Program-made: the position numbers and the translations under genes
Part shown: piece by piece, positions 163 to 14,799 of the stretch
Numbering within the stretch: position 1 is the first letter of the stretch
Layout: each line of letters begins with the position of its first letter
Assembly (NCBI GenBank): GCA_029259575.1
Contig: JAJDEX010000248.1
Span: forward strand, 1 to 14,799
From: Planctomycetota bacterium
GTDB taxonomy: Bacteria > Planctomycetota > UBA1135 > GCA-002686595
DNA: 14,799 bases
Reading direction: 5' to 3'
The notes under the pieces: model-generated
The model's input: only the letters and a program-made list of their open reading frames with translations
What the model was told of the DNA's origin: nothing
The model's database searches: none

Positions 163-831
163 TCAGGCGAACTGAGCCCGAACGTGATCGGCCGGATCGT
201 CCTCGCACAGCACGCCGCGGACCGAGTGGTACGAGAGCGGAACCTCGCAAGGCTTGCCGGTCACCCGATCGAACGTCATGCACGTGTCGATCGGCTTGGC
301 GTAGAGGTGCAGCGAAACCGCGGGCTGGCCACCGCGCGGACGGATCAGGTGCAGGGCGATCTCGTCCTGGATGTACGCGACCTCGCCCGTCTTGAAGACC
401 TTCGAACGACCTTCGGCGAGTCCTTCGGGCGTGCTGCGCAGGTGCACTTCCTCGAGTTCGCCCTCGAGCACCGCCATCCAGCATTGCTGCCCGGAGTGGT
501 CGTGGACGGGACTCTCGTGGCCGGCGCCCCAACCGAGAAGCAGCATCTCGAACGGACCGCAGCGGTGCACGAGGTTGCGCGTGTACGAGTCCTTGCTGAA
601 ATGCAGCATGGAGCGCCAGTCGTCGTGCTCGCTGGCGTACTCCGCCAAGCGAGCGGGCACCTGGGTCCCGCGCGGATCACGTTTCAGGGCGTCCGCGAGT
701 CGCAGACAGAGGTCGTCGATCGGTTGTTGGTTCAAGGGATCGGTCGTGAATGGGGTCGGCGTGGGTCCGCGCTCGGAACGGCGCCCGGGTCCAGGGGCTA
801 CTTTACCGGAGTCGCGCCCCGATTCCGCCAC
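163..831 (-). CDS. Cysteine dioxygenase type I (cupin superfamily thiol dioxygenase). Last gene of the minus-strand cluster.
   Basis: The 222-aa ORF has the CDO-like pattern PIDDLCLRLADAL...DSYTRNLV...LLLGWGAGHESPVHDHSGQQCWMAVLEGELEE (cupin His motif HxH...). The ORF start is GTG at 831-829, 6 nt after the stop of the upstream cupin gene. The first ~30 aa are low-complexity and atypical, so the true start may be an internal TTG (about 745), giving MNQQPIDDL. No clear SD for either start. Confidence 0.65.
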   Translation of the reverse strand: MAESGRDSGKVAPGPGRRSERGPTPTPFTTDPLNQQPIDDLCLRLADALKRDPRGTQVPARLAEYASEHDDWRSMLHFSKDSYTRNLVHRCGPFEMLLLGWGAGHESPVHDHSGQQCWMAVLEGELEEVHLRSTPEGLAEGRSKVFKTGEVAYIQDEIALHLIRPRGGQPAVSLHLYAKPIDTCMTFDRVTGKPCEVPLSYHSVRGVLCEDDPADHVRAQFA

Positions 832-837
832 CGAACA

Positions 838-1221
838 TCAGGGCGTCTCGACCGGGGAGATTCCGCCCCGGGCGGATGCATACAAAATGCAATCGGGATG
901 TCCCGCATCGGGCTCCCCCAGCGCGACCGGCGCGTGCACGCTGCCCTTCGGATAACGCACGTAGGCGCCGGTCTCGTAGGTCCCCCAAGCGTCGCGATAG
1001 CCTCCGGCGAGGACCAGGACCTCCTCGACGTCCAGGTGCTCGTGCGGCGGATAACCGCACCCGGGCTGCATGCGGATCAGCACGGTGCCCCCGGCCCCGG
1101 CTCCCTTGGCCTCGTCGGTCGCCTCGCTCGCGAGCAGGAACCAGAACACGCCGGGCGAGTTCGTGGCGCGCCAATCGACGTCGGCGGCGTTCACGTCGAG
1201 TTGGAGTCCGGGGATCTTCAT
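838..1221 (-). CDS. Stand-alone ChrR-type cupin domain protein (Cupin_7-like), 127 aa.
   Basis: ATG at 1221-1219 (MKIPGLQL...). The sequence WRATNSPGVFWFLL...GTVLIRMQPGCGYPPHEHLDVEEVLVLAGGYRDAWGTYETGAYVRYPKGSVHAPV..PDC matches the conserved layout of the C-terminal cupin of ChrR-family anti-sigma factors. It sits 29 nt after the stop of the upstream repeat protein, and its own stop is 6 nt before the CDO start. The longer 376-aa ORF in the track is an out-of-gene extension overlapping the upstream CDS. Confidence 0.6.
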   Translation of the reverse strand: MKIPGLQLDVNAADVDWRATNSPGVFWFLLASEATDEAKGAGAGGTVLIRMQPGCGYPPHEHLDVEEVLVLAGGYRDAWGTYETGAYVRYPKGSVHAPVALGEPDAGHPDCILYASARGGISPVETP

Positions 1222-1250
1222 GGTGGTCGAGCGAGGGACGGGGAGACGCG

Positions 1251-3644
1251 TCACGTCTTGGGCTTCAGCTTCGGTCGCAGCGTCGTGTTGCGTCCGCTCA
1301 GCTGGAACTCGGTCGAGTAGGTCCGGAACTTCGGGTGCGTGACGACGAGCTTCCAACGATACCGCGGCAGCGCGTCGATGCGGTACTCGCCCTTGCGCTT
1401 GGTCGCCTTGCTCTCGAAGGTCTTCGAGCCCCAAGGTCGTCCGCCCTCGTCGACGGGCAGGCGCCGCACCGTCACCTTCGCGTCCTGGATGGGCTTGCCG
1501 TTCGAGGACACGCGCACGGTCAAGCGACCGACCGTGCGGAGCTCGAAACGACCGACGTCGTGCGTTGCGCCGGGAGCGAGCGCGAGCGTGCCGAGCGGCA
1601 GGACCTCCATGCCGGGTGCCTTGGCGGACAAGGTCGTCCGACCAGGTTTCAGACCCGTGATGCGGAAGCGGGTTCCATCCAGGCTGACCGCCGCACCGCG
1701 GAGTCGGTCGAACCGCAATCCGGGGACGGGACGTTGGTCGCCCTGCACGACGATCTCGCCCTCGATCGTGGCGGGGTCCTTCGGCACGGTCGGTCTCAGG
1801 ACGATCGTGACGACCTCGTTCGCCGCCTCGGGCATGCTCAATTCGATGCGACTCGCGGGCAAGTAGCCCACCGCTTTGAACTCGAGGAGGGACACCTTGC
1901 CCGCCGACAGACCCTCGACCTCGAAGCGACCGAACGAGTCGGTCTGGACGTCGCCGCTCCGGTACCACGGCTTGGCCAGGACGAGGAGCTCAGCCCCCGG
2001 GATCGCGAACCCCTCCGTGTCGACGACTCGACCGCGAAGCGTCAGGCCCGGATCCAGTTCGACACGCACGACACGCGTCTCGCCAGGACGCAGCATGTAG
2101 TTCTTGTCCCCCAACTCGGGGTGGCTCACGGTCCCCTTGATCAACTGTCCCTCCCCCACGACGACCGACCAGGTCCCGTCCTCGGCGGTGACGAGCGGAG
2201 TGCGCGAGGCCGGATACTCGGCCCTGCGAATGGTCAAGGTCATGGTGACGAGCGCACCTGCGACCGGTTCGCCCGCCGCATCGACGACGAGACCTTGCAC
2301 GGTCCGCGGCTTGGGAAGATTCACCAGGATCTCGCTCTTGGTGAACTGCCCCCGCGGGGCATCGGCCGTCCCGAACCGCAACGATCCGTCCGTGGCCATG
2401 GCCAGCAGCATCGTGGTGGTTCGCGCGTTCTGCTCGAACTGGAACTGCCCCTGCTCGCCCGCCTGCTTGCTGACCACGAACGGGGGAACGGTCGAGGCGA
2501 TGTCGCTGATCGATTCGAGGTCCTTGTAGTGCTGCTTCACCGCCGTCGCGACGAAGGCACCGGCGGCAGGACTCCCATCGTGCTCGACCACGCGCCCGTT
2601 CAGGAAGACGGACGTATCGACGCGCCAGGTCACCTGGGTCAACGGCGGACTCAGGCGTGCGATGCGGGCGGCATATCCGCCCCATGGCAACGTGGCTCTC
2701 AAGTAGACGTCGCAGGGGGGCAATTCATCGAGCGTGAACGTGCCGTCCCCACCCACGGTGATCGTCTGGCCGCGCGCTTCCGCAAGGTCTCGACCGACGC
2801 CTTGAGGGATCGGGAACCAATCCACCAGCACGCCCGGAACTGCCTGCTGCGTGCGTCCGCTCTCGATGCGAACGACGAGCTTCGTCCCCTCGGAGCGCAG
2901 GAGTTCGACCTCGCTGGTCTCGTCGGGCAGGACGTTGATCCCGGAGACGACGCTGACCACTCCGTAGGGGGCGAGCAAGGCGACGCCGTAGACGCCGCGG
3001 TGCATCCCGGTGAACGTGAACTTGCCCTGGTCGTCCAACTCGATCTCTTGGAGAGGGTCGTTGCCGCGCGCGAGTTCGTACTGGGACCAGAGCCCGACCG
3101 TGTGCGGTACGCCCGCAGGCAACCGGGCGCCGGTCACGCGCCCCTCGATGCGGCCGAGAGGCTGCATCTCGTAGCGGATGAGCTCGCCGAACTCGGCGTC
3201 GGAGCGGCGCATCGGCGCGAAACCATCGTGCTCGACGGCGACGGACGGAATGCCCGCAGCGGACCACGGCTGGGAGAACCTGCCCTCCGCATCGGTCGCG
3301 ATCCGCAGCGCGAAATCTCCCGCGACGAGCTGGACGGTGGCTTCGGCGATCGGCTCACCGTCCACGCGATTCGTGACGATCCCCAGGACGTGCTGCACGC
3401 CTTCGAACGCGTGCTCCTGGCCCATCGCCAGACGCCCGCCGTCCTGGATCGAGCTGGAGGTCGCCCCGTCGCCGCGCATCCCCTCGCCGAGCAACGTGTC
3501 GTCTTCGTCGACGGCGACGATCTGCGGCTCGAGCGGTTCGACGACCGGCGCCGACTGGTTGCTGGACCCGCGCACCGCGAATCCGATGCCGACGGCGAGG
3601 ACGAGCAACGCAGCCAGTGCGAGGACCGCCCGAACCCGACTCAC
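1251..3644 (-). CDS. Signal-anchored large extracytoplasmic protein, ~798 aa, made of tandem carboxypeptidase-regulatory-like (transthyretin/Cna-B-like) beta-sandwich domains.
   Basis: Proposed GTG start at 3644-3642, preceded by GGAG (revcomp of ctcc 3651-3654) at a 6-nt spacing. N-terminus is MSRVRAVLALAALLVLAVGIGFAVRGSS (signal anchor). There are at least 7 repeats of the G(R/L)V.D..G.P..GA.V type (for example LNGRVVEHDGSPAAGAFV, LRGRVVDTEGFAIPGAELLV, VQGLVVDAAGEPVAGALVTM, TVGRLTVRVSSNGKPIQDAKVTV). The 891-aa ORF in the track is a 5' over-extension. The GTG overlaps the upstream gene stop (TGA 3643-3641) as GTGA, consistent with translational coupling. Confidence 0.7.
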   Translation of the reverse strand: MSRVRAVLALAALLVLAVGIGFAVRGSSNQSAPVVEPLEPQIVAVDEDDTLLGEGMRGDGATSSSIQDGGRLAMGQEHAFEGVQHVLGIVTNRVDGEPIAEATVQLVAGDFALRIATDAEGRFSQPWSAAGIPSVAVEHDGFAPMRRSDAEFGELIRYEMQPLGRIEGRVTGARLPAGVPHTVGLWSQYELARGNDPLQEIELDDQGKFTFTGMHRGVYGVALLAPYGVVSVVSGINVLPDETSEVELLRSEGTKLVVRIESGRTQQAVPGVLVDWFPIPQGVGRDLAEARGQTITVGGDGTFTLDELPPCDVYLRATLPWGGYAARIARLSPPLTQVTWRVDTSVFLNGRVVEHDGSPAAGAFVATAVKQHYKDLESISDIASTVPPFVVSKQAGEQGQFQFEQNARTTTMLLAMATDGSLRFGTADAPRGQFTKSEILVNLPKPRTVQGLVVDAAGEPVAGALVTMTLTIRRAEYPASRTPLVTAEDGTWSVVVGEGQLIKGTVSHPELGDKNYMLRPGETRVVRVELDPGLTLRGRVVDTEGFAIPGAELLVLAKPWYRSGDVQTDSFGRFEVEGLSAGKVSLLEFKAVGYLPASRIELSMPEAANEVVTIVLRPTVPKDPATIEGEIVVQGDQRPVPGLRFDRLRGAAVSLDGTRFRITGLKPGRTTLSAKAPGMEVLPLGTLALAPGATHDVGRFELRTVGRLTVRVSSNGKPIQDAKVTVRRLPVDEGGRPWGSKTFESKATKRKGEYRIDALPRYRWKLVVTHPKFRTYSTEFQLSGRNTTLRPKLKPKT

Positions 3645-4579
3645 CCTTCGCTCCCCAAGAGGTCCGGGGACAGGTCGGCGACAGGCTCGTGGATGCCAGT
3701 CGCGTCGAGCGTCGGGAAGGAACCGTAGGCGCGCCCCTCCAGGTTGAACTGCAGGACGCGCTCGCCGTCGCGGTCGATGACGCAGACCCGCGTCGAGGCG
3801 TCGTCGTCCCCGGGGATCAACGCGAGGTCCGCGGGATGCACGAGCGGCTCCTCGAGGTCGAGTCGTCCCTGGGGGCGGCCGGCACGATCCAAGAGGTGCA
3901 ATCCCCCGGGCGCACCGGGGGCGCAATCGAGCGCCACGACGATGCGACCGTCGGGCATGCGCTCGAACGAGGTCGGGACCTCTTCGCGCGCGCCGGGCAG
4001 ATCGAGGGCGTAGTGGAAGTTGCCGTCCTCGAAGACCTGGATGCGACGGCGGCCGGACTCGAGGACCGCGACCGAGCCATCATCGAGGCGTACGCGGACG
4101 GCGCTCTGGAACAAGCCCTCGGGATCGCCGTCGGGACGCAACGACAGCGTGCGACCGGTCGCGGGATGCATCAACTGCACCGCGTGTCGGCGACGTCCTC
4201 CGCTGACCACGGCCAGCACCAGATCGTCGTCCGTACCTTCGACGGCGAGCGCGACGGGTCGTCCCAGTTGCCCGCGTCGATCGGAATCGAGCGACAGGGG
4301 GTCACCCAACGTCACGACCTCGCGGCCGAACAACGAGAACGCGCGCACGCGGCACGCCGCCCCGTCCGCGACCCACAGGCGATGATCGCCGTCGGCCGCG
4401 AGACCGTCGACCGACGAGCGCCCCATGTCGGTGTCACGGAACGTGAAGCCGCTCTCGAGGCGCCGACCGTCCAGGTCGAACGACGCGACGCGCGCGGTGC
4501 GCGCGTGGCGGCCGACGTAGAGAACGCCGGAGCGATGTGCGATGGAGCCCTGCAAGGACCAGAGTGTACGCATCGACAC
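3641..4579 (-). CDS. NHL-repeat / six-bladed beta-propeller protein, 312 aa, no obvious signal peptide.
   Basis: Repeated propeller-blade motifs: GVLYVGRHA, RLWVADGAACRVRAF, LVLAVVSGGRRRHAVQLMH, AVLESGRRRIQVFEDG, RIVVALDCAP, RVCVIDRDGERVLQFN. Start is GTG 4579-4577 (directly after the upstream TAG 4582-4580) or ATG 4573-4571. Confidence 0.55.
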   Translation of the reverse strand: MSMRTLWSLQGSIAHRSGVLYVGRHARTARVASFDLDGRRLESGFTFRDTDMGRSSVDGLAADGDHRLWVADGAACRVRAFSLFGREVVTLGDPLSLDSDRRGQLGRPVALAVEGTDDDLVLAVVSGGRRRHAVQLMHPATGRTLSLRPDGDPEGLFQSAVRVRLDDGSVAVLESGRRRIQVFEDGNFHYALDLPGAREEVPTSFERMPDGRIVVALDCAPGAPGGLHLLDRAGRPQGRLDLEEPLVHPADLALIPGDDDASTRVCVIDRDGERVLQFNLEGRAYGSFPTLDATGIHEPVADLSPDLLGSEG

Positions 4580-5440
4580 CTACGTGTCGGAAGAGAGTCG
4601 TACGAAGACGACCTCGGGTGAGGCACGAAACCGCAGAGGGCCGCCCACGACGCCGATGCCGCGACTCGCGATGAGAACCGTGGGTCCGAGCTCGACGCGC
4701 AACCCCGGATGCGGCGGCCCAAATCGAGTCAATGGCCATACATCCATCTGGCCGCCGTGCGCGTGTCCCGAGAACACGGCGACGCATCCTTCGCGTGCGA
4801 GCGCCGCGGCCGCGCCCGGGTGATGACACAGGCACAACTCGAGATCGCCGGGTTCGAGGACGGCGCGCGCGGCATCGATGTCGAGCGCGCGGCCCTCTTC
4901 CGGGTCCTCGACGCCGGTGACGACCATTCGCCGCTCCGCGATGCGCACGCCTTCGTTGCGCAGGAATCGCCAACCGTGTTCGGCGTAGCTCGCAGCCAGT
5001 TCGCCTTCACGACGATCGCGGTAATCGTGATTGCCGAACACTCCGAAGACACCGAGCGGTGCGCTCAAGCTGCCCAGTTCGGCCCGGACGAGTTCAGCTT
5101 CCTCATGCCGGTTCGCGACGAGGTCTCCGGTGAACACGATCACGTCGGGATTTCGAGCCTTGACCGTCGCGAGCACGTGGTCCAGGTCACGCCCCTTCAG
5201 GAACGGCCCCGCATGCACGTCGGACAGGTGCGCTACGACCAAGCCGTCCAGGTCGGCGCGAGCTTCGGGAATGCGCACGACCTCCTCGCGGACACGCAGT
5301 CCCCGCGGACTCAAGTGCCGCCAGCGATACCAGGCGCGGCCGCCCAACATGCGCAGCACGCATTCGGACGTTCGGAAGAACGCGCGGCGCAACCACGAGT
5401 GCCGGCGGACCGGCTGACGCAACGGGTCCGCGCGCGTCAT
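4580..5440 (-). CDS. Calcineurin-like metallophosphoesterase (YkuE/YaeI-type), ~286 aa.
   Basis: Canonical MPP motifs: HLSDVH(A), GDLV, GNHD(Y), GHAHGG. Preferred start is ATG 5440-5438 (MTRADPLRQ...), 4 nt downstream of the anti-sigma stop (TGA 5447-5445). The longer track start at 5491 would overlap the anti-sigma by 47 nt. Confidence 0.75.
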   Translation of the reverse strand: MTRADPLRQPVRRHSWLRRAFFRTSECVLRMLGGRAWYRWRHLSPRGLRVREEVVRIPEARADLDGLVVAHLSDVHAGPFLKGRDLDHVLATVKARNPDVIVFTGDLVANRHEEAELVRAELGSLSAPLGVFGVFGNHDYRDRREGELAASYAEHGWRFLRNEGVRIAERRMVVTGVEDPEEGRALDIDAARAVLEPGDLELCLCHHPGAAAALAREGCVAVFSGHAHGGQMDVWPLTRFGPPHPGLRVELGPTVLIASRGIGVVGGPLRFRASPEVVFVRLSSDT

Positions 5441-5444
5441 CGCG

Positions 5445-6218
5445 TCAATCGGTGGTCCCGACGCCGCGCTCGGTCGGCTGCCCGACGGCAAGTATCACCT
5501 CGCCTTCGGCATCGATCCATTTGGGCTCACCGGCACGCGCGGTCAAGCGCATCCGCAGGCCAAGGGCAGTCATGTCCAAGACGTCCCCGGCCTTCAGGTC
5601 GGCGAGGCCCAGCCCGCACTGCACCGTCAGCGGTCCGGTGACCTCGATCGAGCCGGAACCCAGGTCGAAGATCAGCGGCGTGCGCTGTTGCAGGCGCACG
5701 GCCGCGTTCGGTTCCAGGCGAATCCGCGCGTCACCCAGCACCAGGTCCGCGCGACCGTCGGGACCGGATTCGACGACCTGGCCGCCCATCAACTTGGTCG
5801 GGGCGTCCTCGACCGCGGAACCGCTGATCGAGACCTCGCCCGCCAGCCGGGTCACGACGACCGACGGCAGGGTCGGGAAATCGCGCGTGACGGCCCACAT
5901 CAGGATCGCCATCAATGCGGGATAGAGGAACAGGCGCAAACGCGAGCGCTTGCCCGCGACGCCACGTGACTCGTCCTCCTGCATCTGGCGCCGCGCCATG
6001 GCGCGCGCCTTGGTCTCCTGGTCGCGGACCTCCCGGCGCGCGTGGCCCAAAGCCGCGGTCGTCTCGACCATGCCCGCCCAAACCCCTTTGCACTCCGGGC
6101 AGTCGTCCAGGTGCGCCCGCAAGCGCTCGACCTCGGCCCCCGGCAGGCTGGACGACAGGTGCTTCCGCGCGAGGTCGCGCATCTGGCTGCAGAGGTCGGT
6201 CGGGTCGGGAGAGGACAT
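5445..6218 (-). CDS. Membrane-spanning anti-sigma factor: N-terminal zf-HC2 zinc-finger anti-sigma domain, one TM helix, and an extracytoplasmic FecR-like beta-rich domain. First gene of the minus-strand cluster.
   Basis: N-terminus DLCSQMRDLARKHL...RLRAHLDDCPECKG carries the C..H..C..C zf-HC2 signature (the HxxxCxxC part is HLDDCPEC). TM is LRLFLYPALMAILMWAV. The C-terminal region (RADLVLGDARIRLEPNAAVRL...LIFDLGSGSIEVTG) resembles FecR-type sensor domains. No sigma gene lies upstream; the next minus-strand gene is gltX, 129 bp away. Confidence 0.6.
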   Translation of the reverse strand: MSSPDPTDLCSQMRDLARKHLSSSLPGAEVERLRAHLDDCPECKGVWAGMVETTAALGHARREVRDQETKARAMARRQMQEDESRGVAGKRSRLRLFLYPALMAILMWAVTRDFPTLPSVVVTRLAGEVSISGSAVEDAPTKLMGGQVVESGPDGRADLVLGDARIRLEPNAAVRLQQRTPLIFDLGSGSIEVTGPLTVQCGLGLADLKAGDVLDMTALGLRMRLTARAGEPKWIDAEGEVILAVGQPTERGVGTTD

Positions 6219-6347
6219 CAGGAACGGAGCGACGGCCCCTGTGCATCATCGGCGGGGATCCCGGGATTCCCTCGCCCCAACCGGACAACTCTTCGCCGCG
6301 CGACGCGATTCCCCGCCTGGATGGACGGGGGCCCGATGAAGCGCGAG

Positions 6348-7820
6348 CTAGGCCAAGCGCCGGGCACCCGCCGCGATACGCGCGAGCGATGCTTCGAAGC
6401 CCAGCAGGTCGAGCGTCTGGAACAGGTCCGGACCACCGGGCTGTCCGGTCAGGGCACAACGCAACGGCTGGAAGAGGTCCGGGATCTTGGCGTCGTGCTC
6501 TTGCACCCAGGCTTTGGTCGCTTCGCCGAGTTCCAGGGCATCCCCGATCGATCCGCGTTCTTTCAGCCAGCCGGCGTAGGCCTCGAGCAGTTCGACGCGA
6601 CGGTCACGCTTGCGCGCTCCCTTCTCGGCCTTGGGGTCGTACACGACGGCATCGTCCGCGACGAAGAAGTGACCGATCCATGCGGGTAGATCGGCGTACA
6701 GGTTCAGGCGCTCCTGGACCGAAACGACGACGCGCTCGAACCACGCGCGACGGTCGGCGATCTGGTCGGCGGTCAGCAGTCCGGCTTCGATCACGAACGG
6801 CGCGGTGTGCTCGACGAGTTCGGCCGGGGACTCCTGGCGCAGGTACTCGCCGGCGAGCCAACCGAACTTGTCCATGTCGAAGACCGCGCCGGCCTTCGAC
6901 ACGTCCGTGGCCTCGAAGTTCTGGACGAGTTGCTCCATCGAGAACACCTCGGTCTCGCCATCGAGCGCCCAGCCCTGCAACGCGAGGAAGTTCAAGATCG
7001 CCGCTTTGGGATACCCGTTCGCGCGATAGTCCCCCAACGACGTGTCCCCGGTGCGCTTGCTCAACTTCTTGCGATCCTTGCCGAGCATCAACGGCAGGTG
7101 CCCGAAGTCCGGCGCTTCGAGCCCGAGCACGCTGTACAGCAGGATCTGCTTGGGTGTGTTGGTCAGGTGCTCTTCGCCGCGCAGGACGTGGCTGATCTGC
7201 ATGTCGATGTCGTCGCACACGACGACGAAGTTGTAGGTCGGGTTGCCGCCCCCGCGACGCACCAGCACCCAATCGTCGATCTCGGCGTTCGGGAAGGTCA
7301 CGTCCCCGCGCACGAGGTCGGTGAACGACGTCTCGCCGTCCGGGATGCGGAAGCGCAACGCGAACTCCTCGCCGGCATCCGCGCGCCGCTGGCTCTCGGC
7401 CGCATCCAGGTCACGATCCTCGCCGCGGTAGGCCACCATCTGCTTGCGGGCCTCCTGTTCGGCGCGCCATGCATCCAGTTGTTCGGGCGTCGAGAAGTCG
7501 CGGTAGGCCACGCCCATCTCGAGCAGCTTCTGGGCCGTCGCGCGGTGACCGTCCACCCGCTCGCTCTGCATGTAGGGCACGTGCGGACCGCCGATGTCGG
7601 GACCCTCGTCCCAATCGAGACCGAGCCAGCGCAGACCCTCGAGGATCGCGTCGAGCGATTCCTGGGTGCTGCGGCCCGCATCCGTGTCCTCGATGCGCAG
7701 CACGAACGTGCCTTCGTGGCCGCGGGCGAACGCCCAGTTGAAGAGAGCGGTGCGGCACAGACCGAGGTGAACGGTGCCGGTGGGACTGGGGGCGATGCGG
7801 ACGCGGACGGGACGGGACAC
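6348..7820 (-). CDS. gltX: Glutamate--tRNA ligase (glutamyl-tRNA synthetase), 490 aa.
   Basis: GTG start at 7820-7818 (MSRPVRVRIAPSPTGTVHLG) with GAGGAG at a 7-nt spacing. Class I HIGH motif (PSPTGTVHLGLCRTALFNWAFAR) and KMSKS-type motif (KKLSKR). Overall GluRS collinearity (IEDTDAGRS, NPTYNFVVVCDDIDMQISHVLRGEEH). Confidence 0.9.
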   Translation of the reverse strand: MSRPVRVRIAPSPTGTVHLGLCRTALFNWAFARGHEGTFVLRIEDTDAGRSTQESLDAILEGLRWLGLDWDEGPDIGGPHVPYMQSERVDGHRATAQKLLEMGVAYRDFSTPEQLDAWRAEQEARKQMVAYRGEDRDLDAAESQRRADAGEEFALRFRIPDGETSFTDLVRGDVTFPNAEIDDWVLVRRGGGNPTYNFVVVCDDIDMQISHVLRGEEHLTNTPKQILLYSVLGLEAPDFGHLPLMLGKDRKKLSKRTGDTSLGDYRANGYPKAAILNFLALQGWALDGETEVFSMEQLVQNFEATDVSKAGAVFDMDKFGWLAGEYLRQESPAELVEHTAPFVIEAGLLTADQIADRRAWFERVVVSVQERLNLYADLPAWIGHFFVADDAVVYDPKAEKGARKRDRRVELLEAYAGWLKERGSIGDALELGEATKAWVQEHDAKIPDLFQPLRCALTGQPGGPDLFQTLDLLGFEASLARIAAGARRLA

Positions 7821-10301: not shown

Positions 10302-10865
10302 ATGGGATTCCTGCCTGACGAGTGGACGCTGAGAACGACCTATATGGTCCTAGGTGCCGCCGGCGGTGCCATCTTGAGCATCCAGATGGTCCTGATGCTG
10401 ATCGGCGTCGACGGCGAAGGTGACTTCGATGCTGATGGCGACTTCGATCCGGGTAGCGACGGGATGGGACTGCTCTCCATCCGCGGCGTCGCCAGCTTCC
10501 TGACCTTCTTCGGCCTCGTCGGATGGTACGGACTCGAGAACGGCTGGTCGGCGGCCAAGTCGTCGATGGTCGGCCTGGCCGCCGGCTCCGCGATGATGCT
10601 GTTGGTCGCGTTCATCATGACGCAGTACCGCAAGCTCGCGTCCGAAGGCAACCTCGACCCGGGCAACGCCGTCGGTACGACGGCCTCGGTCTACCTGAAG
10701 ATCCCGGGCAACAACTCGGGTCGCGGGAAGATCACCGTGTCCATCCAGGACCGGACGCACGAATATCAAGCCACCACCAAAGGTCCGGAGATCCAGACGG
10801 GCTCCGAGGTTCGCGTGGTGCGCATGATCACCGAGAACACGTTCGAGGTGGAGGCGATCTCGTAG
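10302..10865 (+). CDS. nfeD: NfeD-family short membrane protein (YuaF/YqiJ-like): 3 TM helices plus a C-terminal OB-fold beta-barrel. It is the usual partner encoded upstream of flotillin.
   Basis: ATG at 10302 with GGAGA at a 7-nt spacing. TMs: YMVLGAAGGAILSIQMVLMLIGV, LLSIRGVASFLTFFGLVGWYGL, MVGLAAGSAMMLLVAFIMTQY. C-terminal OB-fold signature: GTTASVYLKIPGNNSGRGKITVSIQDRTHEYQATTKGPEIQTGSEVRVVRMITENTFEVEAI. It lies immediately upstream of an SPFH/flotillin gene. Confidence 0.8.
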   Translation: MGFLPDEWTLRTTYMVLGAAGGAILSIQMVLMLIGVDGEGDFDADGDFDPGSDGMGLLSIRGVASFLTFFGLVGWYGLENGWSAAKSSMVGLAAGSAMMLLVAFIMTQYRKLASEGNLDPGNAVGTTASVYLKIPGNNSGRGKITVSIQDRTHEYQATTKGPEIQTGSEVRVVRMITENTFEVEAIS

Positions 10866-10943
10866 CCGACCGGCTGCGACACGACCCTCTGCCCTGCTCC
10901 ACTCCCTTTCGCACTGGATCCAGATCCGACGGCAACTCCTTCG

Positions 10944-11027
10944 ATGCCGCCCATCCTGATCCTCGTATCCATCATCTTGGTTCTGGCAGGTTTCCTGCTG
11001 ATCCTCGCTAGGCGCACGAAGCGCTGA
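10944..11027 (+). CDS. Candidate 27-aa single-TM mini-protein (MPPILILVSIILVLAGFLLILARRTKR), paralogous to the flotillin N-terminal membrane anchor.
   Basis: ATG 10944 to TGA 11025-11027 in the nfeD-floT spacer. 15 of 19 aligned residues are identical to the FloT N-terminus (AIVLVLAGFMLILARRYKR), while the nucleotide sequence differs mostly at synonymous positions. No SD is present, and it is in the same frame as the nfeD TAG stop 26 codons upstream. It is too short for statistical gene calling. Confidence 0.4.
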   Translation: MPPILILVSIILVLAGFLLILARRTKR

Positions 11028-11050
11028 CATCGACCTCTAGGAGGCTCCAC

Positions 11051-12679
11051 TTGCTACAGACAATGCTCCCTCTCGCCGTGATTCAAGACGGCATCATGGA
11101 CGGGGACGCCGCGATGGTCTTCATCGTCCTCGCCATCGTTCTGGTCCTTGCGGGCTTCATGCTCATCCTGGCGCGTCGCTACAAGCGCTGCCCCTCGAAC
11201 AAGATCCTGGTCGTCTACGGACGTACCGCGAAAGGTCAGTCCGCGAAGCCCATCCACGGTGGTGGCACGTTCGTCTGGCCGCTGATCCAGAACTTCGACT
11301 ACCTCGCGCTGGATCCGATGCAGATCGAGATCCCGCTCGAGGGCGCGCTGTCCCTCGAGAACATTCGAGTCAGCGTTCCGTCGGCGTTCACCGTCGCGGT
11401 CGGCACCGAGAAGGAGGTCATGACCAACGCGGCCGTGCGTCTCTTGTCGCTGTCGCGCGGCGAGATCATCAAGCAGGCCGAGGACATCATCTTCGGTCAG
11501 TTGCGCCAGGTCATCGCCTCGATGCGGATCGAGGAGATCAACCGGGATCGCGACGTGTTCCTCAGCCGGGTCCAGAGCTCGCTCGAGCCCGAACTGGCGA
11601 AGATCGGCCTCGTGCTGATCAACGTGAACATCAAGGACATCACGGACGAGTCGGGTTACCTCGAGGCCATCGGTCGCAAGGCGGCCTCCGAGGCCATCAA
11701 CCAGGCCGAGATCGACGTGGCGCAGCAGAACCAGCGCGGCGCCATCGGTGTCTCCGAGGCCGAGAAGGAGCGCGCGATCCAGGTCGCCGAGCGCGAGAAG
11801 ACGCGAGACATCGGCACCAAGACCGCCGAGCGCGAGCGCGCCGTCCGCTTGGCCGAACTCGACAAGGAACGCGTCATCGGCGAGCAGACGTCGCAGTTCG
11901 AACAGGAGTCCCAGGTCCGTGACTCCGAACGCGAGATGCGGATCCGGGTCTCCGAGGCGAACGCCAAGGCCGTCACGGGTGAGAACGAGGCCAAGGCCAT
12001 CGTCGCCGCCACGAACGCCGACCTGAAGGTCCAGGAAGCCGACGCGTTCCAGCGTGGTGAGACGCGCCGTCGCGAGGCCGATGCCGCCGTCCGCGAAGCC
12101 CAGTACTTGGCCGAAGCCAAGGCGGCCGAGGCCGAGGGCAAGAAGAACGAGGCGCAGAAGCGCGCCGAGCTCGAGGCGTCCGCCAAGGCCGAGAAGGCCC
12201 AGACGATCGTCGACGCACAGGCGCAAGCCGAGAAAGCGCGCATCCTCGCCGAAGGTGAGGCGGCCGCATTGTTCGCCAAGCTCGAGGCTGAGGCGAAGGG
12301 TCAGTACGAGATCCTCGCCAAGAAGGGTATGGGTCTCAAGGAGATCGTCAACAGCTGTGGCGGCGCCGACAAGGCCTTCCAGATGTTGATGCTCGAGCAC
12401 ATCGACCACATCAGCGAAGTCGCCGCCAAGGCGATCAGCAACATCAAGTTCGACAAGGTCGTCGTCTGGGACGGGGGCAACTCTGGTTCCGGTGGCGGCG
12501 GCAAGTCGGGCACGGCCGGATTCCTCAGCAGCCTGGCGGGTTCGCTCCCGCCCGCGATGCAGATGATGAAGGACATCGGCGGCGTCGAGATGCCGGAGTT
12601 CTTCGGCAAGATGGTCTCGGACGCGAAGAAGGCCGAGGTCGTCGAGACCGAACAGGTCGAGGACGCGGCCTCCGAGTAG
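11051..12679 (+). CDS. floT: Flotillin-family SPFH/band-7 membrane scaffold protein (FloT/YuaG/YqiK-like), 542 aa.
   Basis: TTG at 11051 with AGGAGG (11039-11044) at a 6-nt spacing; the alternative ATG is at 11063. N-terminal TM anchor VFIVLAIVLVLAGFMLILARRYKR. The SPFH domain has the form KIL.VYGRT...PLIQNFDYLALDPMQIEIPLEGALS...VAVGTEK. It is followed by the long EA-rich coiled-coil flotillin region (AEREK, KAEAE repeats) and a Gly-rich C-terminal tail. The 606-aa antisense ORF over the same span is rejected. Confidence 0.9.
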   Translation: MLQTMLPLAVIQDGIMDGDAAMVFIVLAIVLVLAGFMLILARRYKRCPSNKILVVYGRTAKGQSAKPIHGGGTFVWPLIQNFDYLALDPMQIEIPLEGALSLENIRVSVPSAFTVAVGTEKEVMTNAAVRLLSLSRGEIIKQAEDIIFGQLRQVIASMRIEEINRDRDVFLSRVQSSLEPELAKIGLVLINVNIKDITDESGYLEAIGRKAASEAINQAEIDVAQQNQRGAIGVSEAEKERAIQVAEREKTRDIGTKTAERERAVRLAELDKERVIGEQTSQFEQESQVRDSEREMRIRVSEANAKAVTGENEAKAIVAATNADLKVQEADAFQRGETRRREADAAVREAQYLAEAKAAEAEGKKNEAQKRAELEASAKAEKAQTIVDAQAQAEKARILAEGEAAALFAKLEAEAKGQYEILAKKGMGLKEIVNSCGGADKAFQMLMLEHIDHISEVAAKAISNIKFDKVVVWDGGNSGSGGGGKSGTAGFLSSLAGSLPPAMQMMKDIGGVEMPEFFGKMVSDAKKAEVVETEQVEDAASE

Positions 12680-13527: not shown

Positions 13528-14799
13528 CTAGTCGGATTCCGAGGACTCGGCGGCGCGCGCACGGTCGAGCATGCCGTCGATCACGCCCAAATTGGGATGC
13601 TCCGGACCTAACAACTGCTCGAAGCGGCTCCGACTCCGTTCGAGGGCGTCGATCGCGGTCCGATACTCCCCGAGGTGGATCCGCGTCTCCCCCAGGTGCG
13701 CGAGCGACTTGGCCGACATCCTCTCGTTGCCCACCGCCTCGAACGTCGTGAGGGCGGCCTCGAATTCGTCGCGAGCCTCCTTGTACCGGCTCAGCCCGTA
13801 CAGGCACTGGCCACGCAAGTAGCGGCCGAGCGCCACGTCCCCGTGCCCCGTGCCGAAGTTCCAGCGGTCGATCTCGAGTGCCGCGTCGGTCACCTCGAGG
13901 GCCTCGGCGAACTGCCCAGCCTCGAACAGGAGCCGGGACTCGATCGTCAGGAAACCGCTCAACACACCATCGTGTTCGAGGTTGCGTCCGCGGGCCTCTT
14001 CGGCCCCCGAGCGGATGAGCGTCAACCGCTCCCCCAAGGTCCTCCCCATCATCGGCGACAGCGCCCAGGCCTGGATCGCCTCGAGTCGAAGCGCGTCACC
14101 CGGCGGCAAGTGCTCGCGCACGAAAGTGTGGGCCTCGGTGAGGTCGCGCACGTGCTCTTCGACGTTGCCGAGCTGCATGTGAATGGCGAGCCGAGTGTTC
14201 AGCAATCGCGCGCGGATGCGTTCGCCCCCGGTCACGTTGGCCGGCAGCTCGGCGAGCCCTCGATCGGCCCAGATCAGGGCCTCGTCGAGCTCGAAGACAC
14301 GCGTGAGTACGGTCGCGATCTCGGCGATCACTTCGACCCGGAAGATGCGGTTCTCCGGCAGGTCGCCGAGCTGTTCGAGGATCAGGTGCAGCTCTTGCAG
14401 CGCCCTCTCGTGGCGCTCGTCCGCAGCCATCTCGCGTGCACGGTTCAACGTCCCTGCGAGGGTCGTGAGCAGTTCGGCCTCCCGCTCCTCGACGGCGAGG
14501 TCCAGACGTTCGGCCTTCTCGATCGTCGAGAGGAGCTCCGATTCTCGTTCCTCGACGACACGATCGGAACGCAAGGCCCAGGCCCCTGCGCCGAGACTCA
14601 AGACGAGCGCCATCAGCGCCGCGGCCTGCCAGGGATTGCGCCTGCCGCGACGCACCATCCGCCCGACGAGCCCCGTGCGGCGCGCCAGGATCGGGAAGCC
14701 CGCCAGGTGTCGCTCCAGGTCCTCGGCCAATGCGGTCGCACTCTCGTAACGCTCGGCCGGCCGCTTGGCCATGCAGGTCGCGACGATCGTATCCAGGTC
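13528..14799 (-). CDS. Ser/Thr protein kinase, partial (the C-terminal part is in the window): end of the kinase domain, one TM helix, and an extracytoplasmic TPR-repeat domain. The 5' part lies beyond the window end.
   Basis: Translation of the last window bases continues the frame (..LDTIVATCMAKRPAERYESATALAEDLERHL), the typical end of a Hanks-type kinase catalytic domain. Then comes a juxtamembrane R-rich stretch and the TM helix WQAAALMALVLSLGAGAWAL. The long helical repeat region has TPR-like periodicity (LGRYLRGQCLYGLSRYKEARDEFEAAL, LAHLGETRIHLGEYRTAIDALERS). Confidence 0.7.
   Translation of the reverse strand, partial: DLDTIVATCMAKRPAERYESATALAEDLERHLAGFPILARRTGLVGRMVRRGRRNPWQAAALMALVLSLGAGAWALRSDRVVEERESELLSTIEKAERLDLAVEEREAELLTTLAGTLNRAREMAADERHERALQELHLILEQLGDLPENRIFRVEVIAEIATVLTRVFELDEALIWADRGLAELPANVTGGERIRARLLNTRLAIHMQLGNVEEHVRDLTEAHTFVREHLPPGDALRLEAIQAWALSPMMGRTLGERLTLIRSGAEEARGRNLEHDGVLSGFLTIESRLLFEAGQFAEALEVTDAALEIDRWNFGTGHGDVALGRYLRGQCLYGLSRYKEARDEFEAALTTFEAVGNERMSAKSLAHLGETRIHLGEYRTAIDALERSRSRFEQLLGPEHPNLGVIDGMLDRARAAESSESD

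Follow-up and report, generated by a model that had tools for sequence, protein, structure and literature searches.

The window analyzed here, 14,799 nt of planctomycetal DNA, carries on its minus strand a run of six genes (163–6218) with intergenic spacing of 0–29 nt. In order from the 5' end, the genes encode an anti-sigma-like protein (ASF), a metallophosphoesterase (MPE), an NHL-type propeller protein (NHL), a CarboxypepD_reg repeat protein, a ChrR-type cupin (Cupin_7), and a cysteine dioxygenase (CDO) (Table 1). All of the junctions described in the initial annotation are confirmed. Specifically, the ASF TGA (5447–5445) is followed after 4 nt by the MPE ATG (5440), and the MPE TAG (4582–4580) directly abuts the NHL GTG (4579–4577), 6 nt downstream of which lies an ATG that public gene callers prefer as the start. 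The NHL TGA and the repeat-protein GTG share the sequence GTGA at 3644–3641. Gaps of 29 nt and 6 nt, respectively, separate the repeat-protein TGA (1253–1251) from the Cupin_7 ATG (1221) and the Cupin_7 TGA (840–838) from the CDO GTG (831); a later alternative CDO start would yield a 190-aa protein. No terminator-like site exists at the junctions of the six genes. GC3 is 0.77–0.88 in all six ORFs versus a GC2 of approximately 0.5, as expected of real genes in 68% GC DNA, and at least six marine (TARA/ENA) assemblies of the same species display the identical layout. Pfam backs each of the six original domain calls. The closely spaced genes are thus genuine, and their names stand. The remainder of the window encodes adenosine deaminase (Ada), an esterase, a 187-aa unannotated ORF adjoining a flotillin (Band_7) gene, a membrane protein, and the TPR tail of a Ser/Thr kinase.

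Table 1. Features of the six-gene run and its upstream neighbor (positions in the window)
Feature	Position	Strand	Description
CDO, Arg-type cysteine dioxygenase (predicted)	163..831	(-)	CDO_I 1.8e-27, 96 bits vs cut-off 23
Cupin_7 (ChrR-type cupin), stand-alone	838..1221	(-)	127 aa; Cupin_7 1.4e-17; HxH...E...H metal motifs
CarboxypepD_reg repeat protein	1251..3644	(-)	797 aa, beta-sandwich repeats; CarboxypepD_reg 1e-47, four stretches
NHL-type beta-propeller protein	3641..4579	(-)	310–312 aa, cytoplasmic; NHL/SGL weak, 21–26 bits
MPE	4580..5440	(-)	286 aa, cytoplasmic calcineurin-like metallophosphoesterase, YaeI/LpxG-like branch; Metallophos 4.4e-11
ASF	5445..6218	(-)	257 aa, single-pass membrane anti-sigma-like protein
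Zinc-ligand motif of ASF anti-sigma domain	6090..6191	(-)	Cys10-x25-His36-x3-Cys40-x2-Cys43
gltX–ASF spacer	6219..6347	(-)	129 nt
gltX (glutamyl-tRNA synthetase)	6348..7820	(-)	Pfam tRNA-synt_1c 7e-93 + Anticodon_2; 490 aa as called in L001

ASF consists of a cytoplasmic zinc anti-sigma domain (residues 1–90), a transmembrane helix (~92–112), and a periplasmic FecR/PupR-like beta domain (~120–252). The Pfam zf-HC2 model, whose cut-off is 22.2 bits, matches ASF marginally at 22.8, and it matches 56 of the 62 ASF family members, with a best E-value of 7.4e-10. Of two further models, the NCBIfam anti-sigma model NF052375 scores 37 bits, under its equivalog cut-off of 100, and the TIGR03988 alignment spans residues 10–44. 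C10, H36, C40, and C43 are each at least 90% conserved across the 62 members and are invariant or almost so in the N-terminal alignment, in a protein that otherwise evolves fast (median identity 28%). The N-terminal model (pLDDT 93) adopts a helical anti-sigma domain fold in which helices 3 and 4 form a single long helix entering the membrane, and the best 11 Foldseek matches are all anti-sigma domains (RslA 3hug, RsiW 5wuq, DdvA, and MucA). The anti-sigma call therefore holds by motif, Pfam score, and predicted fold: ASF carries a class I zinc (ZAS, zf-HC2) domain with predicted sigma and zinc binding. The label “FecR-like” fares differently by sequence model and by structure. The Pfam FecR model does not match ASF and matches only 1 of the 62 family members, while the predicted structure of the extracytoplasmic part strongly supports a FecR/PupR-like fold. 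ASF is a new family within a known type of regulator.

The gene upstream of ASF, gltX, adjoins ASF, or MPE where ASF is missing, throughout the clade, with a median gltX-to-ASF gap of 82 nt (48 species). The spacer present here possesses neither a sigma-70-like nor a terminator-like site, and no conserved promoter was found in it; the transcription unit may begin with gltX. A GGAAT-N18-GTT match at 6312–6287 was considered as a promoter and rejected, as it is present in only 2 of 53 orthologous spacers. Downstream, MPE has no N-terminal hydrophobic segment. Its identification as LpxG, the lipid A UDP-2,3-diacylglucosamine diphosphatase, was likewise discarded: the score is 96 bits versus an equivalog cut-off of 350 (57 bits for the YaeI model), and the gene is missing from 9 of the 67 loci with enough upstream sequence and hence is not indispensable. 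MPE and NHL are closely spaced (median gap 9 nt in 64 species, frequently a 4-nt overlap). The NHL protein has 89 homologs, and among those with a named source, all but one are labeled Planctomycetota/Planctomycetes; the propeller appears to be restricted to the clade. The repeat-protein gene follows after a median of 70 nt (49 species). Its product carries CarboxypepD_reg repeats as its only Pfam domains, possesses a hydrophobic N-terminal anchor (residues 1–28) suited to a membrane-anchored or exported protein, and, like ASF, evolves fast (median identity 26.5%).

The last two genes encode cupin-fold proteins. Cupin_7 has its best PDB match in 3o14 (5.7e-8), and CDO in mammalian CDO1 (8.5e-30, versus 2.7e-7 for B. 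subtilis CDO). The window protein has the CDO residues equivalent to H86, H88, H140, R60, H155, Y157, and Cys93, as do 31 of 31 orthologs, and S153 is kept in 30 of 31, giving an active site of the mammalian type, including the Cys93/Tyr157 pair. By these residues and its PDB matches, CDO qualifies as a genuine thiol dioxygenase, an Arg-type cysteine dioxygenase type I, and the original proposal that a thiol-oxidizing enzyme sits beside the ChrR-type cupin stands at that level. Neither Cupin_7 nor CDO has an N-terminal hydrophobic segment or export signal, so both are probably cytoplasmic.

Do the six genes act together? The initial annotation speculatively regarded them as one redox or envelope signaling module, with an oxidized-thiol signal that the cupin and CDO could produce or detect and that is relayed through the membrane anti-sigma. 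Such a module would be consistent with the co-directional genes, the gaps of at most 29 nt, the terminator-free junctions, and the predicted thiol dioxygenase activity of CDO. The ASF zinc site is, in addition, of the Cys-His-Cys-Cys type, which is redox-sensitive in RsrA and RslA. Moreover, the cupin and CDO genes lie on the same strand, 1–7 kb downstream, in many relatives. However, comparison of 77 species genomes of Saltatorellus-clade Planctomycetota, with the NHL gene as the anchor of the loci, argues against it. The conserved unit comprises gltX, (anti-sigma), phosphoesterase, NHL propeller, and repeat protein; this part of the gene order is kept, whereas the adjacency of the repeat-protein gene and Cupin_7 is not. 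In 26 of 26 other species possessing both, the repeat-protein gene and the Cupin_7 gene downstream of it are 1179–6815 nt (1.2–6.8 kb) apart. Nearly all 26 have at least one further gene in this interval, including Ppx/GppA, alpha/beta-hydrolases, and unknowns, and in at least 13 species the intervening genes include opposite-strand ones such as TraB, p208, and HATPase.

Gene content points in the same direction. All 10 genomes without ASF have Cupin_7, compared with 19 of the 28 that carry ASF, CDO is present in 6 of the 10 genomes lacking ASF, and 2×2 presence tables reveal no association of ASF with either gene. The shared order is that of a longer backbone: PnbB, p589, QueF, a variable slot, esterase, Ada, gltX, and, further along, ferrochelatase and GSIII. 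Because the housekeeping genes QueF, Ada, gltX, ferrochelatase, and GSIII are equally syntenic, co-location at this locus is inherited rather than functional. The proposed division of ChrR into separate polypeptides fails on two further counts: ASF has its own periplasmic FecR/PupR-like sensor while the cupin and CDO probably reside in the cytoplasm, and Cupin_7 scores only 25.6 and 25.9 bits against the ChrR family models, whose cut-offs are 124.5 and 300. The integrated redox module does not survive the clade comparison, and we now consider it highly improbable. The six-gene run is a lineage-specific juxtaposition within a conserved syntenic backbone, and the 29-nt junction between the repeat-protein gene and Cupin_7 is, judging from gene order, a derived deletion. 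Loss of Ppx/GppA and other genes that lay between brought the two units into contact only in this lineage. Given the 29-nt and 6-nt gaps, transcripts started upstream are likely to read through into the cupin and CDO genes here, and co-expression is possible.

With the cupin and CDO set apart, the question becomes which sigma factor ASF might hold. Its immediate upstream neighbor is gltX rather than a sigma gene, this genome has no sigma gene in the 10 kb flanking ASF on each side, and none adjoins ASF in any of the 54 related species that keep it. An ECF sigma gene is detectable within ~10 kb in only 5 of the 77 species, in none of them adjacent, as judged by home-made profiles that would miss divergent sigma fusions such as that in L088. 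In a positive control, L089, a remote zf-HC2 protein shows the canonical layout, its gene overlapping the end of its own sigma gene by 4 nt. ASF is an orphan anti-sigma gene; a conventional adjoining sigma partner is absent. Orphan anti-sigma genes have been documented or hypothesized in the literature (PMC6180224; PMC7406223).

The earlier statement that ASF lacks a cognate sigma is correct for the window and for the immediate neighborhood in the 54 species, but one ECF sigma gene lies a short distance beyond. This PF07638 gene (L087:15813-16370) is located at ~18.7 kb in window numbering, 3.9 kb past the right window end. It is separated from ASF by 12.4 kb and nine intervening genes, lies on the opposite strand, and is divergent from an 810-aa gene that is followed by a Ser/Thr kinase gene. 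Opposite in strand and kinase-associated, it does not turn the locus into a conventional sigma/anti-sigma operon, the possibility that the initial annotation had held out against its own reading. It could nonetheless be the ASF partner, under dual control by the anti-sigma and the adjacent kinase, given that this genome has no other sigma gene within ~13 kb of ASF and that a sigma gene fills the same QueF–esterase slot in Poly30, L017, L020, and L041, with a sigma-TM fusion (717–728 aa) there in L088 and the P0090 locus. Against this notion, QueF directly abuts the esterase gene in most species, leaving the slot empty, and Poly30, L017, and L020 keep the sigma despite a zinc-less ASF. The distance and orientation relative to ASF are also unfavorable, and ECF groups linked to kinases usually come without an anti-sigma factor, phosphorylation being their presumed means of control (PMC7826278). 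A partnership of ASF with this sigma is, in our estimate, distinctly unlikely.

Does ASF act on a sigma factor at all? The full zinc motif is present in 41 of 54 locus orthologs. Twelve species, including S. ferox Poly30, retain the transmembrane helix and FecR-like part without the whole zinc domain, a loss that occurred in one subclade, and at least 10 species lack the entire ASF gene yet keep MPE and NHL. Together, these losses indicate that the locus can fulfill its function, whatever it is, without sequestering a sigma. They also suggest that the function of ASF in this clade could reside in its transmembrane helix and FecR-like domain, which might, for instance, scaffold or regulate the repeat protein or other envelope proteins, with the zinc domain an evolutionary remnant or a binder of some other cytoplasmic partner. 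The missing sigma neighbor in all 54 species would fit, as would the envelope-flavored genes inserted after ASF in L059, L063, and L078 (a GT2 glycosyltransferase, a sulfatase-family enzyme, and a large unknown protein) and the rapid evolution of ASF and the repeat protein, a trait common in envelope-exposed proteins. However, where the zinc domain is present, its conserved ligands and its resemblance to sigma-bound anti-sigma domains argue for purifying selection on a sigma-binding function. ASF also shows no co-occurrence with the repeat protein (33/8 versus 7/3) and is likewise uncorrelated with MPE, so its link to the downstream genes is by adjacency alone. We regard a sigma-independent role as rather unlikely.

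The explanation we favor, and judge probable, is that two separately inherited units occupy a deeply conserved backbone, the first led by an orphan anti-sigma that holds a distal ECF sigma. Unit 1 follows gltX, with which it is probably co-transcribed, and opens with the orphan class I zinc anti-sigma, combining an RsrA/RslA-like Cys-His-Cys-Cys domain, one transmembrane helix, and a periplasmic FecR/PupR-like domain. It continues with MPE and NHL, a putatively translationally coupled cytoplasmic pair, and then the exported repeat protein; these three may have a role in the circuit. Unit 2 is the stand-alone Cupin_7 and the mammalian-type CDO, taken as a cytoplasmic cysteine-oxidizing pair. 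The notion is that the anti-sigma domain of ASF holds an ECF sigma encoded elsewhere in the genome, and that the sigma is released when a periplasmic signal at the FecR-like domain sets off regulated proteolysis of the FecR and RsiW kind, when the zinc-thiolate site is oxidized, or both. In a more elaborate version, ASF would act as sensor in a trans-envelope system peculiar to the clade, devoid of a TonB-dependent transducer and expressed from the gltX unit. The repeat protein would be its periplasmic signaling partner, and the output would be a distal ECF sigma or, in zinc-less species, an influence on the co-transcribed MPE and NHL pair that involves no sigma. This elaboration strikes us as quite doubtful.

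We note likenesses between these genes and known systems. Analogous to RslA of M. tuberculosis, RsiW of B. subtilis, and the soluble RsrA of S. coelicolor, ASF possesses an HxxxCxxC motif and an upstream Cys, with the spacing of the RsrA ligands (C11/H37/C41/C44). Its modeled helical N-terminal domain superposes on those of RsiW and RslA, and like membrane-bound zinc anti-sigmas, it has one transmembrane helix followed by an extracytoplasmic domain. Unlike RslA, RsiW, and RsrA, ASF sits beside no sigma gene in 54 species, has a FecR/PupR-like extracytoplasmic domain, has helices 3 and 4 modeled as one, and has lost its zinc domain in one subclade. ASF shares its single-pass topology with the FecR/PupR cell-surface-signaling regulators, the structural match covering only ~111–125 residues of the 213–216-residue PupR and BDI_1681 chains. 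It differs from them in its zinc-binding type of N-terminal domain and in its surroundings: no FecI-type sigma lies beside it, and the precomputed Pfam lists for the genes of L001–L004 and L087 (within ~10 kb) contain no TonB-dependent transducer or receptor family.

As in ChrR, the anti-sigma of R. sphaeroides sigma-E, zinc anti-sigma and Cupin_7 domains occur in one gene cluster. Unlike in ChrR, they reside on separate polypeptides four genes apart, are neighbors in no other species, and show no association in their presence across genomes, and ASF has a transmembrane helix and FecR-like domain in place of the cupin. CDO is 34.6% identical over 185 aa to a rat CDO1 sequence, in agreement with the PDB alignments, and shares with mammalian CDO1 the 3-His iron site, Arg60, Ser153-His155-Tyr157, and Cys93. 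It differs in being bacterial and in having a 30-aa N-terminal extension, or else a later start, and its Cys-Tyr cross-link is putative. Finally, the orphan anti-sigma gene rsiA2 of Sinorhizobium meliloti (PMC6180224) is, like ASF, encoded away from any sigma gene. ASF belongs to another anti-sigma class and another phylum, and, in contrast to rsiA2, its orphan site downstream of gltX is conserved clade-wide.

The six-gene operon at the left end of the window arose by accident, through gene loss specific to its lineage. Closely spaced genes in one genome may look like an operon with a shared function, an appearance that comparative genomics here dissolves. Within the window itself, the packing described in the initial annotation is exact: six ORFs on the minus strand, all strongly biased toward GC at third positions (GC3 0.77-0.88), occupy the left 6.3 kb, and every junction is as reported (see table). 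Several other marine assemblies of this species (TARA/ENA) share the layout. Pfam likewise confirms the domain assignments, namely CDO_I, Cupin_7, CarboxypepD_reg (four stretches), Metallophos, a weak NHL/SGL match, and a zf-HC2 match barely over threshold. Directly upstream of the anti-sigma-like gene, called ASF, Pfam places gltX. Apart from the 187-aa ORF and flotillin gene taken up below, the remaining window genes specify an adenosine deaminase, an esterase, a small membrane protein, and part of a Ser/Thr kinase, namely its TPR tail. Scans of the window revealed no Rfam families, sigma-70-like promoters, or junction terminators.

Features of the window and related loci, with gene spacing in the window and across the clade
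Feature	Coordinates (strand)	Window spacing	Clade gap	Remark
Cysteine dioxygenase (CDO)	window 163-831 (-)
ChrR-type cupin (Cupin_7)	window 838-1221 (-)
CarboxypepD_reg repeat protein	window 1251-3644 (-)
NHL beta-propeller (NHL)	window 3641-4579 (-)
Metallophosphoesterase (MPE)	window 4580-5440 (-)
ASF	window 5445-6218 (-)
gltX	window 6348-7820 (-)
GGAAT-N18-GTT match	window 6312-6287 (-)			gltX-ASF spacer
187-aa ORF and flotillin	window 10302-12679 (+)
Kinase tail	window 13528-14772
Sigma/810-aa/kinase region	L087:10675-16370			window-equivalent ~13.5-19.2 kb
PF07638 ECF sigma	L087:15813-16370
Sigma-TM fusion	L088:3839-6025			also P0090 locus
ASF without zinc domain	L048/L007:8425-9087			S. 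ferox Poly30; also L017, L020, L023, L026, L027, L028, L031, L032, L036, L039, L086
ASF-MPE inserts	L059:4376-9121; L063:2650-9149; L078:3218-6570
gltX to ASF			n=48, median 82 nt
gltX to MPE			n=10, median 39 nt	loci without ASF
ASF to MPE	(-)	4-nt gap	n=47, median 67 nt	0.8-6.7 kb inserts in 14 species
MPE to NHL	(-)	TAG/GTG abutment	n=64, median 9 nt	many 4-nt overlaps
NHL to repeat protein	(-)	GTGA overlap	n=49, median 70 nt
Repeat protein to Cupin_7	(-)	29-nt gap	n=26, median 3.6 kb
Cupin_7 to CDO	(-)	6-nt gap

The comparison set consists of 77 loci, one genome per species, scanned with a 10-sequence NHL alignment and including those of Saltatorellus ferox Poly30 and Engelhardtia mirabilis Pla133. 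Among 89 NHL relatives, all but one of those with a named source are labeled Planctomycetota or Planctomycetes, and the clade GC content of roughly 70% (PMC11032199) fits the 68% of the window. Homologs of all window genes were mapped onto the 77 loci. Compared with their window counterparts, GltX homologs show a median identity of 62% and those of NHL, MPE, Cupin_7, and CDO 44-51%, but ASF homologs only 28% and repeat-protein homologs only 26.5%. Gene order and orientation are conserved along a backbone that runs PnbB(-), p589(+), QueF(+), a variable slot, esterase(-), Ada(-), gltX(+), ASF(+), MPE(+), NHL(+), repeat protein(+), Ppx/GppA(+), alpha/beta-hydrolase(+), in some loci HATPase(-), and then Cupin_7(+), CDO(+), ferrochelatase(-), and GSIII(-). 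Synteny is just as strong for unrelated housekeeping genes, so proximity is weak evidence of shared function in this clade. The variable QueF-esterase slot holds a 187-aa ORF with no Pfam match followed by a 542-aa flotillin (Band_7) gene in the window genome and in three related loci (L010, L011, and L024). Inserts that separate ASF from MPE include a GT2 glycosyltransferase gene, a sulfatase-family gene, and a large gene specifying a 765-800-aa protein with no Pfam match; at L059, a GGDEF gene lies between the NHL and repeat-protein genes.

The conservation of this neighborhood is partial. Specifically, the order gltX, ASF, MPE, NHL, repeat protein is kept, and the adjacency of the repeat-protein and Cupin_7 genes is absent in 26 other species, in which the two lie 1179-6815 nt apart and never within 150 nt. 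A single gene, Ppx/GppA, occupies the interval in the window's nearest subclade (L010, Pfam 6e-37). There, a GC3-based caller proposed a minus-strand 327-aa ORF, an antisense artifact of the plus-strand Ppx/GppA gene. At least 13 species have opposite-strand genes (TraB-like, p208, or HATPase) in the interval. These gaps and intervening genes indicate that the 29-nt junction of the window represents the backbone in its most reduced form rather than an ancestral operon.

The genes also come and go independently of one another. The repeat protein is present in 33 and absent from 8 loci with ASF (7 and 3 without ASF), Cupin_7 is present in 19 and absent from 9 (10 and 0), and CDO is present in 19 and absent from 9 (6 and 4). 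In such 2x2 presence tables, ASF showed no association with any of the repeat protein, MPE, Cupin_7, and CDO. Of 38 loci in which the sequence extends at least 8 kb upstream of the NHL gene and 9 kb downstream of it, only 11 possess all seven genes. The initial annotation had proposed, as a speculation, that the six genes constitute an envelope or redox signaling module in which the cupin and CDO could make or sense an oxidized-thiol signal passed on through ASF. The close packing in the window invites that reading; the kilobase gaps in 26 species, the opposite-strand interveners, and the independent gene content speak against it, and we consider it highly improbable that all six genes form one redox-signaling module. 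Rather, the cupin and CDO form a metabolic unit of their own, which a deletion joined to the presumed ASF transcript.

The individual proteins can be described further. Cupin_7 stands alone as a 127-aa protein in which the HxH...E and ...H metal motifs are intact; among solved structures, the two-cupin protein 3o14 is the best match. The notion of a split ChrR was rejected: the anti-sigma and Cupin_7 domains sit on separate proteins four genes apart, and the cupin scores well under the ChrR cut-offs. Cupin_7 also weakly matches the DMSP_lyase cupin family (E 2.3e-4, 21 bits, under the cut-off), which, beside a thiol dioxygenase in a marine organism, might merit a look. No export signal was found in Cupin_7 or CDO. 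In L088 and the P0090 locus, two further loci outside the 77-species set, CDO follows a class-V aminotransferase, consistent with ordinary cysteine catabolism. An exact-sequence look-up of the 222-aa CDO returns no record because gene callers use a different start. Finally, MPE was dismissed as the clade's LpxG, given a score far under the cut-off, its absence from several species, and its lack of a membrane anchor.

What remains is ASF at its fixed site downstream of gltX. A word-indexed search yields 3 close relatives with the single sequence and 9 with a profile; HMMER, run exhaustively over 1.84 billion representatives, yields 139 full-length relatives of ~260 aa. In an alignment of 62 of these relatives, Cys10, His36, Cys40, and Cys43 are each at least 90% conserved, and 56 of the 62 match zf-HC2 (best E 7.4e-10). 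Sub-threshold NCBIfam matches include an anti-sigma equivalog (2.7e-9) and RsrA (1.2e-3, residues 10-44 aligned). The AlphaFold2 model, built with the family alignment as input (pLDDT 93.5), contains three N-terminal helices, a helix at 92-112 presumed to span the membrane, and an all-beta domain at 120-252. The label of zf-HC2/FecR-like anti-sigma first given to the gene is thus well supported in silico by motif conservation, profile matches, and model alike. As modeled, ASF crosses the membrane once, with a conserved zinc anti-sigma domain on the cytoplasmic side and a FecR-like domain on the periplasmic side.

Among the 54 species with an ASF orthologue, 41 carry the complete zinc motif, and one orthologue is truncated by its contig end. 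The other 12 lack the whole N-terminal zinc domain and keep the transmembrane and FecR-like parts; they make up the Saltatorellus subclade, including S. ferox Poly30. Loss of the domain from an entire subclade of 12 species counts in favor of a sigma-independent role for ASF, which, alongside the motif retained elsewhere, we regard as unlikely.

As first reported, no cognate sigma gene adjoins ASF: there is none in the window and none within 10 kb on either side of ASF in its own genome. The possibility that a sigma gene immediately beyond the window completes a conventional sigma/anti-sigma operon does not hold. A PF07638 ECF sigma gene (196 bits) does exist on the 250-kb TARA scaffold of the same species, ~3.9 kb past the right end of the window, 12.4 kb from ASF, and on the opposite strand. 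It is divergent from an 810-aa unknown gene, after which comes a 738-aa Ser/Thr kinase-TPR gene; ECF sigmas regulated by kinases would be expected to have this layout. Downstream of the sigma lies a 320-aa gene, which was rejected as the anti-sigma of this sigma: it specifies a secreted protein with neither zf-HC2 nor any Pfam match. At a control locus (L089), a remote zf-HC2 gene overlaps the end of its ECF sigma gene by 4 nt. Within ~10 kb, a sigma gene was detected in just 5 of the 77 species, four in the QueF-esterase slot and the fifth downstream (L061), and it never adjoins ASF. L088 and the P0090 locus carry in that slot, the slot of the small ECF sigma in Poly30, a 717-728-aa fusion that begins with an ECF sigma (regions 2 and 4) and continues through a hydrophobic segment into a long C-terminal extension; home-made sigma profiles, which would miss divergent fusions of this type, detected none in the 77 loci.

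A match to GGAAT-N18-GTT, which we take to be the SigR/SigH-type ECF promoter consensus, lies between gltX and ASF and looked attractive because the ASF zinc site resembles that of RsrA. Of 53 orthologous upstream regions, just 2 contain it, in positions that do not correspond, and on that sequence comparison it is treated as chance.

The picture we find reasonably probable is that of an orphan ASF restraining a distant ECF sigma, with a separate cupin/CDO unit. ASF heads a co-directional set directly after gltX, followed by the cytoplasmic phosphoesterase MPE, the cytoplasmic propeller NHL, and the exported beta-sandwich repeat protein; these three genes, which show no statistical link to ASF, may simply share a transcript with it. 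ASF would sequester an ECF sigma encoded elsewhere in the genome. Triggering of the periplasmic domain could release the sigma through regulated proteolysis like that of FecR and RsiW; oxidation of the Cys-His-Cys-Cys site, as in RsrA and RslA, could act in addition or instead.

These analyses define a family of ~260-aa orphan anti-sigma-like proteins with zinc anti-sigma and FecR-like domains, hosted by a clade of little-studied, shape-shifting planctomycetes. Each domain type is well known; the family itself is new and uncharacterized. Orphan anti-sigma genes such as rsiA2 are already known (PMC6180224). Because anti-sigma surveys start from sigma-gene neighborhoods (PMC7406223), we expect orphans to be under-sampled. 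Two isolates with complete genomes provide natural variants, Pla133 (CP036287) with the zinc domain and Poly30 (CP036434) without it, and thus a ready comparison for the role of orphan anti-sigmas.

From the enzyme side, CDO is of the mammalian type: its best solved relatives are human and rat CDO1 (E 8.5e-30), versus 2.7e-7 for the Bacillus subtilis enzyme. His86, His88, His140, Arg60, His155, Tyr157, and Cys93 are kept in the window protein and in 31 of 31 orthologues, and Ser153 is kept in 30 of the 31. In bacterial CDO forms, Tyr157 is described as unmodified, the Cys93-Tyr157 cross-link being a eukaryotic feature that they lack (PMC8050391). A bacterial CDO with a eukaryote-type pair may interest thiol-dioxygenase enzymologists: going by its sequence, the window CDO shares with eukaryotic CDO1 the Cys93/Tyr157 residues that form the eukaryotic cross-link.
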